A stretch of 64,000 bases of DNA from Planctomycetota bacterium (GTDB taxonomy: Bacteria; Planctomycetota; UBA1135; UBA2386): NCBI GenBank assembly GCA_046290465.1, contig JBKAGP010000001.1:3104001-3168000 (forward strand). The letters are read 5' to 3'. The notes beneath the pieces are model-generated. The model was not told where the DNA came from, made no database searches, and was given only the letters and a program-made list of their open reading frames with translations. Positions 21,468 through 38,663 of this stretch are shown one piece after another. Within the stretch, counting starts at the first letter, position 1; each line of letters starts with the position of its first letter. The position numbers were made by a program, and so were the translations under genes.

Positions 21468-22595
21468 CTGCCGCAGCACCTGGACCACGCCGACGAACTG
21501 CGGCCGGGCCACCCGCCGGTGCCGCTCCGACAACCGCTCGTTCAGCTCGCGCGGCGCCCTGGCCCATTCCTGCAGCTCCTCGCGCCACTGCTGGCGGCGC
21601 GCCATCGCGTCCGGATCGTCGAGCGGCGGCCGGGTGCGGTTGAGTTCGGTCAGCAAGTCGTGCACGACGTCGAGCATCCGCCTGGCGGCACGCAGCTGCT
21701 GGCGTTCGGCAGCGAGCACGGCGTCGGACAGCTCGAGCTTGGGGACGCGCCGGTGGTTGCCGAGCAGCACATCGGGACGGCCGTCACCGTCCCAGTCGGC
21801 AGCCGCGATCCGCAGCGGCACGTTGGGCGCGTCGAGTTCGGCGACGCGACGCGGCTGCAGGCGGCCGCCATCACGCTGCAGAACGTGCACGCCGTCGCGG
21901 TCCTGCGTCAGCAGATCGAGGTCGCCATCGCCGTCCCAGTCGACCGCCGCAAAGCCGCGGCTGGTCGCGCCGATCCGCACCGCCTCGGCCTGAAAGCCGC
22001 CGGCGACGCCGCGGTGCAGCACCAGCGCGGGGGTCGAGACGAGCAGGTCGCGCACGCCGTCGCCGTCCCAGTCGAGCAGTTCGACGGCGCCGCGCGAGCC
22101 GTCGCGGGGCAGCGACCGGCCGTCGGGCGCGCGCAGTTCGGTGCGGGTTGCAAAGCTGCCGGCGCCGTCATTGGCAAACCACACCGGCAGCGCGTTGACG
22201 CCGATGCCGCCGAGGCCGGCGCACAGCGTCAGCAGGTCGAGGTCGCCGTCGCGGTCGACGTCGACGAGCCGCGGCTCGCAGGCGTTCTCGCAGGTGGGGC
22301 CGGCCTCGATGCTGAGCGGGCGCGCCGCTGCGAATCGTCGCGGCTGCCGCGACAGGCCGCGACGGAGGTCGAAGCGGCCGTTGCGCCCGACCACCAGGTC
22401 CTCGATCCCGTCGCCGTCGACGTCGCCGAGCGCGACCGAGATGCGGTAGTCGTCGCCGACGTCGATCGCGGTCGGGGTCGATACCGTTGGGGATTGGCCC
22501 GTCGGGGTTTGGCCCTTCGGCGTTTGGGCCGTCGCGGTCGGCGCGATGGCGATGGCGAACAGGCAGACGGGTGCGGTCCAGGCGGGCCGGTTCAT
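21465..22595 (-). CDS. Secreted FG-GAP/VCBS repeat protein
   Basis: Signal peptide; five D.DGDG..DL repeats. Confidence 0.88.
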   Translation of the reverse strand: MNRPAWTAPVCLFAIAIAPTATAQTPKGQTPTGQSPTVSTPTAIDVGDDYRISVALGDVDGDGIEDLVVGRNGRFDLRRGLSRQPRRFAAARPLSIEAGPTCENACEPRLVDVDRDGDLDLLTLCAGLGGIGVNALPVWFANDGAGSFATRTELRAPDGRSLPRDGSRGAVELLDWDGDGVRDLLVSTPALVLHRGVAGGFQAEAVRIGATSRGFAAVDWDGDGDLDLLTQDRDGVHVLQRDGGRLQPRRVAELDAPNVPLRIAAADWDGDGRPDVLLGNHRRVPKLELSDAVLAAERQQLRAARRMLDVVHDLLTELNRTRPPLDDPDAMARRQQWREELQEWARAPRELNERLSERHRRVARPQFVGVVQVLRQ

Positions 22596-28147: not shown

Positions 28148-29350
28148 TCACCTGCCCACAGCGGGCTTGCGGTAGCGCGTGATCGCAAACCCGATCGGCG
28201 CCGGGCCGGGGTCGTTGCCGCGCTGGTTGAAGCGGTGCGCGCCCTTCCGGGAGCCGAGCGCGACCAGCTCGAAGCGGACCAGATCGCGCTTGCGGTCGTC
28301 GTAGAGGCCCTCGCCGTACAGCTGCGCAGTGATCGACCGCTCGCCGTCGTCCATCGCCACCTCGCCCCCGTAGACGACCGTCGTCATGCCCTTCTGGCTG
28401 GGGCCGCGGCGCATCGTCAGCGAAGCCTTGCGCACGTGCTCGGCCTTCCACGTCGAGGCCTGGCCGCGCACGTTGTCGATCAGCATCTCACGCGCGAGCC
28501 TGGTCACGAACTTGGCGTCGACCGGTTGCGGCTTCGACGACTTCGCCGGCACCAGCGCGCGCCAGTCGTCGACGGCCTGCCAGTTCTCGTTCCACGCCCA
28601 CTTGGTGAACGCCATCCACCCGGCCTTCAGGTGCGTGTCCTTGTCGAACCGGCACTGCTCGCCCTCGCCGCGCGGCAGGTCGCGCGAGTGCACGCGCAGC
28701 ACGAACTCCTGGCCGTCGAGCCGCGCCGGCAGCGTCGTGACGACCTTGGGCACCGGCTCGTTGGCGTAGCCCTTGTCCTTGCGCAGCTTCTCCCAACGCT
28801 CGAGCGCGCGCTCGAGGCGCTCGACGATGTCGTCGGGGAAGCCGCTCGCGGCGAACCGTCCCTCGAGATACTCGCCGTCGGGCCCGATCATGTAGAGGCC
28901 CTGCTTGGTGCCCGGATGGTTCCAGTCGCCCTTCGGCATCGCCTCGCCGAAGCGCTTGAAGAACTGGTGCTCCGGCCGGTCCTGCACGCGCTTCAGGTTC
29001 CACTCGTCCTCCGGGTAGAGCATGTAGACCTCGTCGGCGACGGTGACGAAGTTGCGGCTCAGCTCGGCGATCTTCGGGTCGGACCAGACCAACTGTCGGC
29101 CCCGCACACCGTTGTTTCAGGTGCACCCGAGCGGGTGCCCGTTCATCGTCCAGAACAGGATCGGACGGCCGAGCCGACGCGCCTCCTGCACCGCCGGCCA
29201 CAGCGCGTTGCGCCAGCCGATCTCGCGGTAGCTCTCCTCGTGCGCGGCCGGCTGCACGAACGTCAGCCACTCGCGGAAGTTGTCGGCGTCGGGTCGCGGC
29301 GGGTCCTGCGGAGCCAGGAGCGCCAGGAAGGCCAGGCTGGTCGTCAGCAT
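28148..29350 (-). CDS. Putative selenoprotein A (thioredoxin-like, CxU; Sec at TGA 29119-29117), ~400 aa, probably secreted
   Basis: ORFs 29117..29569 and 28148..29107 share a frame, joined as WTMNGHPLGCT-TGA-NNGVRGR. The paralog at 37503 has the same join and a SECIS-like hairpin follows. Alternative start 29362. Confidence 0.85.
29080..29104 (-). promoter_or_regulatory. SECIS-like hairpin of selenoprotein A
   Basis: GGGCC-GAC[AGUUG]GUC-U-GGUCC with a bulged U; loop starts 22 nt after UGA, G at loop position 2. Confidence 0.7.
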
Positions 29351-29373
29351 GGCCGCGATCATAGCGGCCGCAG

Positions 29374-30249
29374 CTACTGCACGACCTCGAGCAACTCGAC
29401 ATCCAGCTGGTAGATGTCGACGCAGTAGCCGTCGATGTGGGTCTCCTTCACCGAGAGGCGGCCGACCAGCTTGATCGGCTCGAACTGGTAGTCGACGCGG
29501 CGGCCCTCGGCCATCCGGCAGCGCACGATGCCGTGCACGTCGGGCGGCGTGCCGTAGCAGCACGACCACAGCGAGCTGACCAGCAGGAACTCACGCATGT
29601 CCTCGACCTCGTCGAGCGGCAGCATGAAGCCGAGCATCAGCACCTGCAGGCCGTCGAGCGCGCGCACGGCGTCCGGTGCGCCGATGAGACCTTCGGTGTA
29701 CTTCCAGCCGCTCAGTTCGTCGAACGGCAGCACCCGGTCGACCCCGGCGATCTTGCCGTTGGCGATCATCTCCTGCAGCTTCTTCTCGGCCGCCAGCATC
29801 GCCTCCGCAGAACGCATCGCAGCGAGGTCGGCCGGATCGGTACCCTTGGGCAGTTCGCGGCCGTCGGGGTTGTTGCCGCCGGGATTGCTGCCGCCAGGAT
29901 CACCGCCGGCCGGCCGCAGCGGCCCGTCGACGCCGTTCGGCCCACCGACACCATCCGGCGCCTGCGCGACCTCGCGATCACCTGGCGGCGCATCGCCACC
30001 GGAGTCGGCGCGGTTCAGCCGCCACGCCAGCACCGTGACCCCGAGGCCGAGCAGCAGCACCGCGGCGACCAGCATCCGGTAGGCGCTGGCCGACGACCCG
30101 GTGGGCGTCGCCCGCTCCGGCCCGGCCGCGACGCGGGCCAGGATCCGCTCGGCGCGATCCGGAGGCGACGCGCGCTCGGCGAGTTCGTCGAAGGCGTGGT
30201 CGAAGTGTCGCTGCTCGACCGACTCTGGCTCGTGCTGCTGATCCGTCAT
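29374..30249 (-). CDS. Putative anti-sigma factor with periplasmic DUF3299-like domain
   Basis: Coupled to the ECF gene; single TM; ALDGLQVLMLGFMLPLD...EFLLV...SCCYGTPP. Confidence 0.75.
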   Translation of the reverse strand: MTDQQHEPESVEQRHFDHAFDELAERASPPDRAERILARVAAGPERATPTGSSASAYRMLVAAVLLLGLGVTVLAWRLNRADSGGDAPPGDREVAQAPDGVGGPNGVDGPLRPAGGDPGGSNPGGNNPDGRELPKGTDPADLAAMRSAEAMLAAEKKLQEMIANGKIAGVDRVLPFDELSGWKYTEGLIGAPDAVRALDGLQVLMLGFMLPLDEVEDMREFLLVSSLWSCCYGTPPDVHGIVRCRMAEGRRVDYQFEPIKLVGRLSVKETHIDGYCVDIYQLDVELLEVVQ

Positions 30250-30836
30250 GACGACTCCTGTTGCATCCTCCGCTGCACGCATTCGCGCAGCGCCTTGCGC
30301 GCGCGCGACAGCAGCGACTTGATCCCGTTGGCGCCGATGCCGAGGCGGCCGGCGACCTCGCTGCACGACGCGCCGTCGAGGTGGTGCCACTGCACCGCAT
30401 CGCGCATGCGACCGTCGAGCCGGTCTACGCAGCGCCGCAGCAGCTCGATCCGTTCGTCCTCGAGCGCGCTGGCGTCGTCCCGCAGGTATTCGTCGACCTC
30501 CTCGAGCCACTGCACGGTCGGCGGCTCGCGCCGGCTGCGGCGCCGCGCGCCGAGCAGCAGGTTGCGGGCGGTGCCGCGCAGGTAGGCGGCGACATCGACG
30601 ATGCGCTCGCCCGACAGCAGCCGTTCGGCCGCGATCACGAACGCATCCTGCATCAGGTCGTCGGCCTCGTGCGGGTCGGCGCCGAGCAGCCGCAGGTAGC
30701 GCCAGACCATGCGCTGGTGCGCCCGCACCAGGGCGGCGAAGTCGGCCATCACGCCGCTCGCGGCCGGGCCGGGCGCGGGGCGCTCGCTGCGTTCGATTGG
30801 CTGCACGGCGGGCATCGTCTCCGCTGGTGCCCGCAC
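30246..30836 (-). CDS. ECF sigma-70 factor (start uncertain)
   Basis: EADDLMQDAF (region 2), LRRCVDRL...EVAGRLG...IKSLLSRARKALREC (region 4). Confidence 0.9.
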   Translation of the reverse strand: MRAPAETMPAVQPIERSERPAPGPAASGVMADFAALVRAHQRMVWRYLRLLGADPHEADDLMQDAFVIAAERLLSGERIVDVAAYLRGTARNLLLGARRRSRREPPTVQWLEEVDEYLRDDASALEDERIELLRRCVDRLDGRMRDAVQWHHLDGASCSEVAGRLGIGANGIKSLLSRARKALRECVQRRMQQESS

Positions 30837-34653: not shown

Positions 34654-34728
34654 TTGGGATGCGGCGAGCGGTCTCGCTGGGGATGGGAGCCGCCGATGCG
34701 GCCTCCGACCCACGAACCCCACGATCCC

Positions 34729-37029
34729 ATGATCCCCCAGCAGTCCCTGCGCCGGCTCGCCGGCGCGTCCGTCCTCCTCACCACCCTGGCCGTCGGCCAA
34801 CAGCCGCAGCTGACCCAGACGAGCCCGCCGCAGCACGATCCGGTCGTGCCGATCCACACGGCGGCCGACGACGAAGGCCACGCCTACGGCATCTGGGGTG
34901 CGGGCCCCGGCTACAAGATCTCGTTCCACGACGGTGCGACGCTGGTGCCCTATCTCGGCAAGGCCTACCCGCACAACCAGCCGTGGACGTGGCGCACGAC
35001 CTCGGTGCGGCTCGGCGGCGTCGAACTGGCGACGCAGGCGCCGCGGCTCAGCTACGGCGGCGTGCTGGCCAGCTACGACCTCGGCGGCGTGACCGAAGCG
35101 TGGGAACTGCGCCCCGACGGCGCCGAGCAGACGTTCGTCATCGACCAGCGGCCGGCGGCCGGCGAACTGGTCGTGCAGGGCGTCGTGCAGTCGATGCTGC
35201 AGGCCGACGCCGCCACTGCCGCGCACCAGCCGCTCTCGTTCCGTGACGGCGACGGGCTCGAACTAGTCCGCTACGGCACAGCGATCGCGATCGACGCCAA
35301 CGGCCAGCAGCGCGCGATGACCACCAGCCACCGAGACGGCACCATCACGCTGCGCCTCGACGCCGCCTGGCTCGAGACCGCCGCGTTCCCGCTGGTCGTC
35401 GACCCGCTGGTCGGCCCCGGCACCAACGTGACCGGCAACACCCGCTACGAGGTCGACGTCGTGCGCTGCGCCGAGACCAGCGTCGAACCCAACTGGGTCG
35501 CCTACTCGGTCTACGCCTCGCTCGGGGACGCCGACGTCTACACCCGCCGCTGGAACGACGACGGCACGATCGGCTCGGTGCCGTTCACCGACGTCACGTC
35601 GTCGTGGTCGACCAACGACCCCGCAGCCGCCTACAACGCCAGCGCCAACAGCGCGGTGTTCGTGTTCGACCGCAGCTTCCCGAGCAGCAGCACGCGCCGC
35701 ATCCGCGCCCACCGCCACCTGCGCAGCGACTACGTCAGCAACACCACCTACGACGTGTTGCCGTCGACGGACAACGCCTGGCGCTCGGACGTCGGCGGCA
35801 CCCGCTACAACCAGGCCGGCGACCTCGTGATGGTCGTCTACCAGCAAGAACCCAACAACGGTGGCGGCTTCCAGTCGACTTCGGGGACGGACGTGTTCGC
35901 GATCCCCTACAACGCCGTGACCGGCGCGTTCGGCAGCCCGATCGGCGTCGGCACGGCGCAGTTCTCCGACAACGAACGGCCGTCGATCAACCAGGTCTCG
36001 ACCAGCTTCGGGCCGACCGCCAACTGGCTGGTCTGCTACCAGAGCCGCAACAACCTGATCATCGGCCCCAACCCCAACAACGACGACTGGGACCTGAGCG
36101 TGCGCGAGGTCGACAGCAACGGCGGCGTCAACGGCTTCCTCACGATCGACGGCGGCAACGGGGACCACAAGTTCGCGCCGCAGATCGCCGGCGCCAGCGG
36201 TCGCTACCTGGTCGCCTACGTCACCAGCCCGATCTCGGCGAGCACGCCGTTCGGACGGATCGGCCACCAGATCCGCACCATGCGCGTCGACTGGCCGGCG
36301 CTGTCCGGAGCCGGCGTGACCCCGCATCCGTCGCGGCTGCTGGTCTCGAGCCCGTCCGCCACCCGCGAACTCGGCAGCCTCGCGTTCGATCGCAACAGCT
36401 ACAGCCACTGGGCGCTGCTCGACCGCAACGCCGGCAGCGGCGACCTCAGCATGCGCCTGGTCGGCTACACCGGCAGGCTGCTGCGTTCGGAGCTGGTGTT
36501 CAACGCCAGCAGCACCCAGCTCGGCGTGCTCGGCGGCCTGTCGTTCGACGCCTTCGACGACGAGTTCGCGATCGCCTACGCCTACAACCAGAACGGCAGC
36601 GACGTGACCACCATCGACCGCTTCCAGTATCCGTTCGTGTTCAGCCCGTCGACCGCCGGCACCGCCTGCAGCCCCGCCAGCATCTCGTGGTTCGGCTCGC
36701 AGCAGATCGGCAGCGAACTGAGCGGCGTCGCCGTCGACGGCGCGGCGTTCGACTCCATCCACATTGCGGCACTGGCGACCGCACCGGCGAGCGCGGTGCT
36801 GTTCGGCGTGCCGCCGATCCAGAACGGCTGCTGGCTGCTGGTCGCCAACGCCGGCCCGGACTACCTCGGCCTGTTGGACGTGCGCGTCGGTGCCAACGCC
36901 TCATGGGAGCTGCCGCTGCCCGAGTTCCTGTCGGCCGACACCTACTACGTGCAGGGCTGGCACACGGTCGGCGGCGGCAACTTCGACTTCGTCAGCACGC
37001 AGCGCCTGGCGGTGCCGACGATCAAGTAG
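34729..37029 (+). CDS. Large secreted beta-rich hypothetical protein
   Basis: Signal peptide; N-terminal domain ending AFPLVVDPL; Ser/Thr/Asn-rich beta repeats. Confidence 0.8.
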   Translation: MIPQQSLRRLAGASVLLTTLAVGQQPQLTQTSPPQHDPVVPIHTAADDEGHAYGIWGAGPGYKISFHDGATLVPYLGKAYPHNQPWTWRTTSVRLGGVELATQAPRLSYGGVLASYDLGGVTEAWELRPDGAEQTFVIDQRPAAGELVVQGVVQSMLQADAATAAHQPLSFRDGDGLELVRYGTAIAIDANGQQRAMTTSHRDGTITLRLDAAWLETAAFPLVVDPLVGPGTNVTGNTRYEVDVVRCAETSVEPNWVAYSVYASLGDADVYTRRWNDDGTIGSVPFTDVTSSWSTNDPAAAYNASANSAVFVFDRSFPSSSTRRIRAHRHLRSDYVSNTTYDVLPSTDNAWRSDVGGTRYNQAGDLVMVVYQQEPNNGGGFQSTSGTDVFAIPYNAVTGAFGSPIGVGTAQFSDNERPSINQVSTSFGPTANWLVCYQSRNNLIIGPNPNNDDWDLSVREVDSNGGVNGFLTIDGGNGDHKFAPQIAGASGRYLVAYVTSPISASTPFGRIGHQIRTMRVDWPALSGAGVTPHPSRLLVSSPSATRELGSLAFDRNSYSHWALLDRNAGSGDLSMRLVGYTGRLLRSELVFNASSTQLGVLGGLSFDAFDDEFAIAYAYNQNGSDVTTIDRFQYPFVFSPSTAGTACSPASISWFGSQQIGSELSGVAVDGAAFDSIHIAALATAPASAVLFGVPPIQNGCWLLVANAGPDYLGLLDVRVGANASWELPLPEFLSADTYYVQGWHTVGGGNFDFVSTQRLAVPTIK

Positions 37030-37096
37030 ACCGCCGTGCCGCGCCGTGACGTGCTTGGTGCGTTCGCGCCGAGCACGTCTGGCATCGTCGCCGACG

Positions 37097-37470
37097 ATGC
37101 TCGGCTCGATCGCGATCATCTCGCTGCTGGTCGGCGGCATCGGCATCATGAACGTCATGCTCGCGACGTCACCGAGCGCACTCGCGAGATCGGCATCCGG
37201 CGCGCGCTCGGCGCGCGTCGCAGCAGCATCGTGTGGCAGTTCTTGATCGAGACGATCGTGCTCCGCTCGATCGGCGGCCTGCTCGGCGTGCTGTTCGGCG
37301 TCGGCATCCCGGCGATCATCACCCTGCTCAGCGGCAACCTGACGATCGTGCTCGCGCACCACGTCGCGCTCGCCGCCGGCATCTCGATCGCCGTCGGCCT
37401 GTTGTTCGGCCTCTATCCGGCGTGGCGGGCGGCGTGCATGGATCCCGTCGAAGCCCTGCGACACGAGTAG
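37097..37470 (+). pseudogene. Truncated, frameshifted MacB/FtsX-type ABC permease C-terminus
   Basis: [16 protein letters not shown] in one frame, [16 protein letters not shown]...[18 protein letters not shown] in another. 1-nt loss near 37167; no N-terminal part. Confidence 0.85.
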
Positions 37471-37502: not shown

Positions 37503-38663
37503 ATGCGCGCCCTCCCCGTGGCCTTCGTGCTGTCGTCGCTGGCGATCTCCGCGACGGCGCAGTCTCCCCAACTCGACCAGGCCCGATTCACCAAGCTGCA
37601 CCGACAGCTGCGCCCCGACCCCGACGCGATCTGGCGCAGCATCCCGTGGCGCATCGACCTGCTCGCCGCCCAGCGCGAGGCAGCCGAACAACGCAAGCCG
37701 CTGTTCGTCTGGGCCATGGACGGCCACCCGCTCGGCTGCACCTGAAACAACGGCGTGATCGACCGTGTGTCGACGTTCGCCAACCAGGAGATGGCCACGA
37801 TGCTGCGCACGCAGTTCGTGCCGGTCGCGATCGACCAGGCCTACGAGCGCCGGCAGCAGGACGCCGAAGGCGAGTTCTACCGCAAGTTCGCCGGGCAGGG
37901 TCCCCGCGGCGACTTCGCAGGAACGACCCAGGGGTTCTACGTGGCGACGGCGGCAGGAGACCTGCTGCTCTACAACAACAACCGCGACCCCGCGAAGGTG
38001 CTTCGCCTGGCGAAACGAGCGCGCGAGCGGTTTGCCGCGAGCCCGGCGGCGAAGGCCGAGGTCGCGTCGATCGACCACGGCCGCGTCGACGCGCGCTACG
38101 CCGTCACCCCGCCCAGCGGCGGCCTGGTCGTCCGGGTGCACGGCAAGGTGCTCGGCGGCTACGCCCCCACGGACGAACCGTTCCAGAAGGCGATGCAGCA
38201 GGCCTTGTCCCGCGACAACCTCTGGATCACGCAGGAAGAACGACAGGCGCTGCTCCGCGGCGAGCTACCGGATGCACTGATGCGTCGCCTCGCGCGCTAC
38301 CACCTCGTCGACGGGACGCGCGGCGAACCACCGATGTGGCGAGCGGACGAGGTCTTGACCCTCGACGTGCATCGCAAGGGCGACCGCGTCTCGGGTCGCA
38401 TACGCCTGGGCACCAAGGACGGCAAGCGTGGCTACGAGGCCTCCTTGCTGGGCTTCGTCGCGACCGAGGGCGAACGCGTCACGCGCTTCGACCTGGTCGT
38501 CGACGGTACGTTCCACGGCGAAGGCCGCTACACGCGAGGCGCCCCGGAAGGAGCGTTCCCATTCGCCGTCGCGTTCTCGCTGGCAGACGGCAGCGATGTC
38601 GCCGACGCGATCCCGCCACAGGGCTCACGCGGCTGGGTCGACGGTTACCTGAAGGCGCGCTGA
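37503..38663 (+). CDS. Putative selenoprotein B (thioredoxin-like, CxU; Sec at TGA 37743-37745), 386 aa, probably secreted
   Basis: ORFs 37233..37745 and 37755..38663 share a frame, joined as WAMDGHPLGCT-TGA-NNGVIDR. Signal peptide present; homologous to selenoprotein A on both sides of the TGA. Confidence 0.87.
37752..37781 (+). promoter_or_regulatory. SECIS-like hairpin of selenoprotein B
   Basis: GGCG..UCGAC[CGUGU]GUCGA..CGCC; loop starts 18 nt after UGA, G at loop position 2. Confidence 0.72.

Follow-up and report, generated by a model that had tools for sequence, protein, structure and literature searches.

Two Interrupted Genes in One Window

Gene A lies on the forward strand at positions 37503..38663 of the window (the whole 64,000-nucleotide stretch of planctomycete DNA analyzed here) and, when an internal UGA is read through at residue 81, encodes a predicted selenoprotein of 386 residues followed by a TGA stop. 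ORF analysis agrees with the preliminary description, which had reported two same-frame ORFs separated by a single codon: the frame runs from the ATG at 37503 to 38663, and the TGA at 37743..37745 (+) is its sole interruption. Judging from the frame and the homolog alignment, this codon would be read as selenocysteine (Sec) at residue 81, within C79-T80-U81; its context is ...KPLFVWAMDGHPLGCT-U-NNGVIDR, with the motif GHPLGCT-U-NNGV, and the homologs of gene A align across residues 1-386 with one in-frame TGA. By eye, the N-terminus (MRALPVAFVLSSLAISATAQ) resembles a signal peptide, probably of the Sec type and comprising residues 1-19 (37503..37559, +; A-T-A, then Q); hydrophobic N-termini recur among the homologs, and the pLDDT of the structural model drops over this region (66, 63). 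The table-11 ORF that follows the TGA starts at the GTG of NNGV (37755) and has no hydrophobic N-terminus, in keeping with the earlier statement that the downstream ORF lacks a signal peptide.

A second member of the same family, paralog B, was recognized by BLASTP on the minus strand at 28148..29362, where its frame extends from an ATG at 29362 to a stop at 28148-28150 and encodes 404 residues plus the TGA stop. Its internal UGA (29117..29119, -), located by pattern search and alignment, would likewise be read as selenocysteine within GHPLGCT-U-NNGV. A degenerate DNA pattern for GCT-TGA-NNG occurs at two sites in the 64-kb window (none expected from 100 shuffles), the second of which, at 29109-29128 on the minus strand, falls within paralog B; the same gene was also the second own-genome match in a six-frame search, with one TGA. 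The two proteins share 29% identity over their whole length (BLASTP E 1e-28), so the homology past the TGA that had been proposed for the pair is upheld. They have the 12 residues GHPLGCT-U-NNGV in common, with TGA at the same column, and the earlier claim of an identical 12-codon context therefore stands for the amino acids and the TGA but not for the nucleotides, 3 of 36 bases differing by eye.

The TGA of gene A is spanned, with zero differing letters, by contigs of two public sequencing runs (X2 and X6), which bear different organism labels; the assembly may have been made from X2. A metatranscriptome run (X1) contained one near-identical contig of 232 nt, covering 37982-38213, and otherwise short and poor fragments; as no X1 contig spans the UGA of gene A, these contigs are not evidence of transcription or read-through.

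Predicted Fold and Domain Organization

The AlphaFold model of the gene A protein, built on a 46-sequence alignment, has a pLDDT of 93.4 and a pTM of 0.89, and it contains a thioredoxin-fold domain at residues 40-181 (37620..38045, +) that is also delimited by structure matches. In VIA-align, this domain matched 3f9u with a Z of 12.9 (rmsd 2.8, 118 aligned residues), AGR3 (3ph9) with a Z of 12.0, and DsbH (2ju5) with a Z of 10.6; 29 chains reached Z >= 8, almost all of the top 50 were thioredoxin-fold proteins, and Foldseek returned 3f9u at E 6.6e-4. Sec81 falls between a strand (67-72) and a helix (82-89), and it is placed by the model at the N-terminus of the first thioredoxin-fold helix, the position of the attacking Cys of CxxC. 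The thioredoxin-like character proposed earlier is accordingly borne out, with Sec at the active-site position of the modeled fold, although when C79-T80-U81-N-N-G was examined for a CxxC or CxxS motif, neither Cys nor Ser was found at +3.

The remainder of the protein forms a beta-rich domain at residues 196-386 (38088..38660, +), which reached a pLDDT of 94.1 when modeled alone. It gave no Foldseek match in the PDB at E <= 0.001, no Pfam match, and a best VIA-align Z of 6.3, to beta-barrels and porins, which lies below the tool's meaningful level. A search of the family profile against PDB sequences produced chance-level rows only (a viral fusion glycoprotein at E 0.02-0.03 and 3ira at E 0.6).

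Homologs and the Residue at the UGA Column

When 401 sampled genomes of the phylum were searched in six frames at a match threshold of E <= 1e-10, the gene A family was found in 121 of them. Across identities from 60% to under 30%, an in-frame TGA was present in all but five of the matches listed, beyond which there were 19 more. An alignment was prepared from 51 read-through sequences at 50 loci, and among the 50 sequences that cover the Sec column there are 46 with TGA, two with Cys (L052, C-N-C; L054, Q-A-C), one with Asp (L051), and one with an insertion (L053). The preliminary description had named separate occurrence of the two halves as contrary evidence; at the 46 loci inspected, both halves stand in one frame. 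At one locus (L043, G108:C42:50031-52275), two family members lie in tandem on one strand, each with TGA at the Sec column.

Protein databases present the family differently. A word-indexed search with the read-through protein gave 1203 matches, and 119 of the best 120 are proteins of 285-305 aa that cover 74-78% of the query and start just past the UGA; the sole long protein among them (P0009) has W at the Sec column and is read as a code-4 gene call. As had been supposed, annotation has split the family: among the best matches listed, the Sec forms are truncated and are either termed "hypothetical protein" or unnamed, which implies that selenoproteome counts for Planctomycetota are too low. 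A profile search of 1.84 billion cluster representatives found 4092 at E <= 0.001 and 2667 at E <= 1e-10, making this a large family. Of the best 150 profile matches, 25 are full length, the other 125 beginning only past the Sec column; when the full-length proteins were anchored by eye on GHPLG, ten had Cys at the column, while the other 15 had A, D, E, G, N, R, S, or Y and still kept the fold-wide conserved residues.

The expectation that homologs would carry TGA or Cys at this column is thus correct for nearly all of the 50 aligned sequences but does not extend to the wider full-length set, in which 15 of 25 have another residue. The proposed CxU motif needs a similar qualification: Sec is usually, but not always, preceded at a distance of two residues by Cys, and since Ala replaces Cys79 in two Sec forms (L035 and L050), a Cys-Sec couple cannot be universal.

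These data also bear on the reading in which the UGA is a true stop, whether between two genes, within a pseudogene, or under another genetic code. Gene callers treat the codon as a stop, as the predominance of the downstream piece alone among the best database matches shows. Termination here would, however, separate the first strand of the thioredoxin fold from its first helix, the codon is kept over the full range of identities in more than 100 genomes, and the Cys forms are continuous. With regard to another genetic code, TGA terminates gene A, paralog B, and many neighboring high-GC3 ORFs and is therefore a normal stop in this genome. A true stop at the internal codon is, on this evidence, extremely improbable.

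A pattern search of genome contigs, which carried C at the Sec column and so could find only Cys forms, returned three MAG contig loci from Gemmatimonadota (L071, L072, and L073, the genome of L072, G402, being flagged unpublished), all with GHPLGCT-C-NNG. The Gemmatimonadota genomes with the Cys form contain selA. In a Gemmatimonadota sample, the family was found in 1 of 201 genomes, namely the center genome alone, which indicates a mainly planctomycetal family. The Gemmatimonadota Cys forms look like the outcome of a recent transfer accompanied by a Sec-to-Cys switch.

A Small Hairpin Downstream of the UGA

A SECIS-like hairpin of gene A was delimited at 37752..37781 (+) by minimum free energy (MFE) folding and covariation in 33 homologs. 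Counted from the U of the UGA, it has a lower stem at nt 10-13/36-39, an upper stem at nt 17-21/27-31, and the loop CGUGU at nt 22-26, and it is the MFE structure of both the first 48 and the first 75 nt (-12.3 kcal/mol). The corresponding SECIS-like hairpin of paralog B, obtained by MFE folding, occupies nt 18-39 (29081..29102, -) and has 8 bp, one bulged U, and the loop AGUUG; the MFE of the sub-window nt 15-41 is -11.1 kcal/mol, and the explicit structure scores -9.5. The SECIS element of E. coli fdhF has G23 and U24 in its loop and a bulged U17. Both hairpins resemble elements of this type in being short, in lying within the coding sequence right after the UGA, and in having a G and a U in a small apical loop, and paralog B additionally shares the single bulged U; in contrast, the stem sequence of the gene A family hairpin is unrelated to that of fdhF.

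The hairpin common to 33 A-type sequences consists of a stem at nt 16-21/27-32 and the loop C22-G23-U24-G25-C26. In an ungapped alignment, 83.9% of the cells are paired, as compared with 71.6 +/- 1.7 in a shuffle control in which 0 of 500 shuffles reached the observed value, a control that ignores kinship and that related sequences can beat without any structure. Sliding the pairing partners lowered the paired fraction to 17-34%, a comparison that favors the hairpin because its structure was derived from the same sequences. Both-side changes occur in all six pairs, and the cleanest signal is the covariation of pair 18:30 (GC in 18 sequences, CG in 6, and UA in 6), which joins the third base of a Leu codon to that of a Ser codon, so that the bases covary while the amino acids are unchanged. 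Among 46 sequences, 29 use CGT for the Arg in the loop, whereas CGT accounts for 222 of the 2204 Arg codons in the remainder of these genes.

Other measures are less favorable. In the B-type subgroup (14 sequences), in which the hairpin lies 4 nt further downstream than in A-type sequences, 89% of the cells are paired but there is almost no covariation, and 155 of 500 shuffles reach the observed value. Folding of the 70 nt after each UGA gave energies no better than those of shuffles (z +1.34 and +0.98). The hairpin of the gene A family is small and is supported by sequence comparison, not by folding energy; moreover, as it overlaps the conserved residues L-D-R-x-S, part of the conservation is at the protein level. 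Three close Gemmatimonadota Cys forms retain 5-6 of the 6 pairs, two of them with the loop CGU changed to CGC, and distant non-Sec forms retain 1-3. The synonymous-site covariation provides a clean SECIS example from a phylum in which SECIS models have been little tested.

Selenocysteine Machinery

The source genome, a single contig of 6.59 Mb, contains the complete set of components for which the preliminary description had recommended a check. The tRNA-Sec scored 72.8 bits (cut-off 47) and was called by ARAGORN as tRNA-SeC with the anticodon TCA, and selA (453.1 bits), selB (353.7 bits), and selD (352.1 bits) all exceeded their cut-offs. The selD gene itself contains one in-frame TGA, in the context ...SSAG-U-AAKLPPG (G000:C1:1309619-1311945, locus L018), and adjoins selA on the same strand. 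It is followed by a hairpin with a 9-bp stem and the loop CGGGC at nt 30-34 after the UGA, 8 nt further downstream than the A-type hairpin; this loop is a variant that is also found in the gene A family.

Of the 401 sampled genomes of the phylum, 290 contain selA; among the 121 with the family, a comparison by eye counted 117. The four family genomes without selA comprise two whose forms have no stop (G142 and G303) and two with TGA forms (G246 and G336) whose completeness is only 84% and 67%, respectively.

A hairpin just past a stop codon can in general stimulate read-through, and on these grounds the UGA might be decoded by a near-cognate tRNA as an ordinary amino acid (Trp, Cys, Arg, or Gly) instead of Sec. 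Such decoding would leave several observations without an explanation, namely that the family tracks selA, that the alternative residue in homologs is mostly Cys, that the loop resembles that of selD in the same genome, and that the codon sits at the active site of a thioredoxin fold; it is accordingly regarded as very improbable. The UGA of gene A and that of paralog B very probably encode Sec. The decoding mechanism of the family is canonical, and the understanding of Sec decoding is unchanged by it.

Relation to Known Families

Pfam-A and NCBIfam were scanned with gene A at E <= 1. In Pfam, gene A gave sub-threshold matches only, to Thioredoxin_7 (PF13899, 17.8 bits) and Thioredox_DsbH (PF03190, 13.8 bits), against a gathering cut-off of 27 bits. 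The wider group to which these models point, which encompasses Thioredoxin_7, DsbD C-terminal-like, DsbH, and AGR-ERp18 proteins (PDB 3f9u, 2ju5, 3ph9, 1sen, and 7tkv), shares with gene A an exported or secretory-pathway thioredoxin fold and an active residue at the N-terminus of the first helix; gene A differs in having C-x-U followed by N-N-G in place of CxxC or CxxS, in its Sec, and in its extra 190-residue beta domain.

In NCBIfam release 20, the only match at E <= 1 was NF041383 (14.2 bits against a cut-off of 275, E 0.026), which is also the only selenoprotein model to give any match to gene A. This model describes VPGUxxT type 2 ("OS_HP5" in the 2026 catalogue), which is, like the gene A family, a thioredoxin-like selenoprotein family with no assigned function. 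Membership of gene A was rejected on account of the score and of the motif, GCT-U-NNG taking the place of the absent VPGUxxT.

Further selenoproteins with a CxU motif are given in Table 1 of a 2026 review, namely rhodanese-like form 3 (NF041203), UshA-like (NF041198), ferredoxin-thioredoxin reductase (NF041072), and thioredoxin-like Sec.1 (PF13192) (PMC13188914). Their Cys-Sec spacing is the same as in gene A, but their folds or sizes differ, as judged by the table names only, and none of the four models matched gene A at E <= 1. None of the 119 selenoprotein families in that table has the architecture or motif of gene A, and none of its NCBIfam, TIGR, or Pfam models scored above cut-off, families with only cd or PTHR models being outside the scan (PMC13188914). 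Planctomycetes are not mentioned in the accessible portions of the deep-Sep (PMC12013277) and BSepDB (PMC13326102) papers, and the accessible part of another source lists, in its Table S9, one "hypothetical" Sec candidate in a planctomycete, under IMG genes 2643311185/2643311186, that may or may not belong to the gene A family (PMC4807772). A literature search on selenoproteins and Planctomycetota found no description of the family.

The preliminary description had not recognized the protein among named bacterial selenoprotein families, and the absence of both an above-threshold Pfam or NCBIfam match and a fitting entry among the catalogued families supports that assessment. This is a real, widespread selenoprotein family that has been missed by annotation, was not found in the catalogues examined, and still lacks a model in Pfam or NCBIfam. 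The known repertoire is extended by a thioredoxin fold whose attacking position is occupied by a C-x-U site, together with a beta domain that has no clear solved relative.

Proposed Mechanism and Possible Roles

Taken as a whole, genes A and B very probably encode two-domain selenoproteins that are predicted to be exported and for which a redox mechanism is proposed, the UGA of each being decoded via SelB and tRNA-Sec under the direction of a small hairpin. Each would be one intact gene in which SelB and tRNA-Sec convert the internal UGA into selenocysteine, directed by a hairpin that begins approximately 16-20 nt past the UGA. The product, a predicted N-terminal thioredoxin fold joined to a C-terminal beta domain, would be exported through its signal peptide, whereupon the selenolate of Sec81 may attack an oxidized extracytoplasmic substrate such as a disulfide, a sulfenic acid, or a peroxide. 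Cys79 could then resolve the adduct to give a Cys79-Sec81 selenenylsulfide, and the beta domain might provide substrate or ligand binding. The likeliest role of the Sec forms would be that of an exported selenol/thiol oxidoreductase; given Sec, the prospects of an oxidoreductase role are put at about even.

A different role is indicated by the non-Sec relatives. Among the 25 full-length representatives, five are fused to Ser/Thr kinases (P0123, P0126, P0128, P0146, and P0226) and three to FecR (P0232, P0236, and P0255); in these fusions the whole two-domain family module, in a Cys or non-redox version, forms the C-terminal end. The N-termini of the FecR-type fusions resemble, by eye, anti-sigma factors. 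The fusion of non-Sec relatives to kinases and FecR anti-sigma factors suggests a role in sensing or binding and points to a testable link between the fold and envelope signaling. On this basis, the module could be mainly an extracytoplasmic sensor or ligand-binding domain and not a turnover enzyme, the Sec forms being free-standing redox or ligand sensors whose reactivity is tuned by Sec. The C-terminal placement of the module in the fusions is consistent with such a role, as are the loss of Sec or Cys in 15 of the 25 representatives with retention of the fold-wide conserved residues, the protein kinase genes that lie upstream on the opposite strand in two loci, and the ECF sigma factor gene near paralog B. 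The fusions seen are, however, all Cys or non-redox forms, none with TGA, and no signaling partner is conserved beside the Sec forms; in addition, the retention in most members of a costly Sec at the attacking position of the thioredoxin fold argues for chemistry at that position. That the module is chiefly a sensor is possible but rather doubtful, and for the Sec forms themselves a redox or ligand sensor role, given Sec, is judged equally doubtful.

The two roles may also coexist. An uncatalogued extracytoplasmic module composed of a [C/S/T]-x-[U/C] thioredoxin fold and a new beta domain might be employed by Planctomycetes in two ways, as a free selenoenzyme and as a sensor head on Ser/Thr kinases and FecR anti-sigma factors, a proposal that is put forward tentatively and considered unlikely. 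Were it true, the Sec forms would use selenium to sense or scavenge a particular oxidant, metal, or sulfur/selenium species in the periplasm, and the commonness of the family in the phylum would help to explain why most genomes have kept the Sec machinery.

Gene Neighborhood

Pfam searches of the three longest upstream ORFs at 43 loci (120 ORFs) revealed no conserved neighbor, the neighbors in the window had no BLAST match among all 245 flank ORFs, and nothing consistent emerged when upstream ORFs from the B-type subgroup were scanned against Pfam with relaxed settings. All-against-all clustering of the flanks showed synteny among close relatives only. As no neighbor is conserved beyond close relatives, the context gives no handle on the substrate. 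Neither the DUF3299 and ECF sigma genes beside paralog B nor the FtsX fragment preceding gene A is conserved, and all were rejected as partners.

The ORF just upstream of gene A (37036-37470, +; 144 aa) contains only the last segment of an FtsX/MacB-type permease, its N-terminal part being of low complexity and rich in Arg and His. It follows, in the same frame, the TAG that ends a 791-aa ORF (34654-37029, +) with no family match, and its appearance is that of a leftover permease fragment, not of a functional ABC partner. Directly upstream of paralog B, and in the same orientation, the region 29377-30836 (-) carries genes for an ECF-type sigma-70 factor and for a DUF3299 protein (E 8e-10); because the two longest ORFs in this region overlap, the DUF3299 start is probably further downstream than that of the longest ORF. 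Lastly, an FG-GAP repeat protein is encoded in the window at 21468-22595 (-), and FG-GAP/ASPIC proteins appear among the planctomycete selenoprotein candidates in the accessible part of a published Table S9 (PMC4807772).
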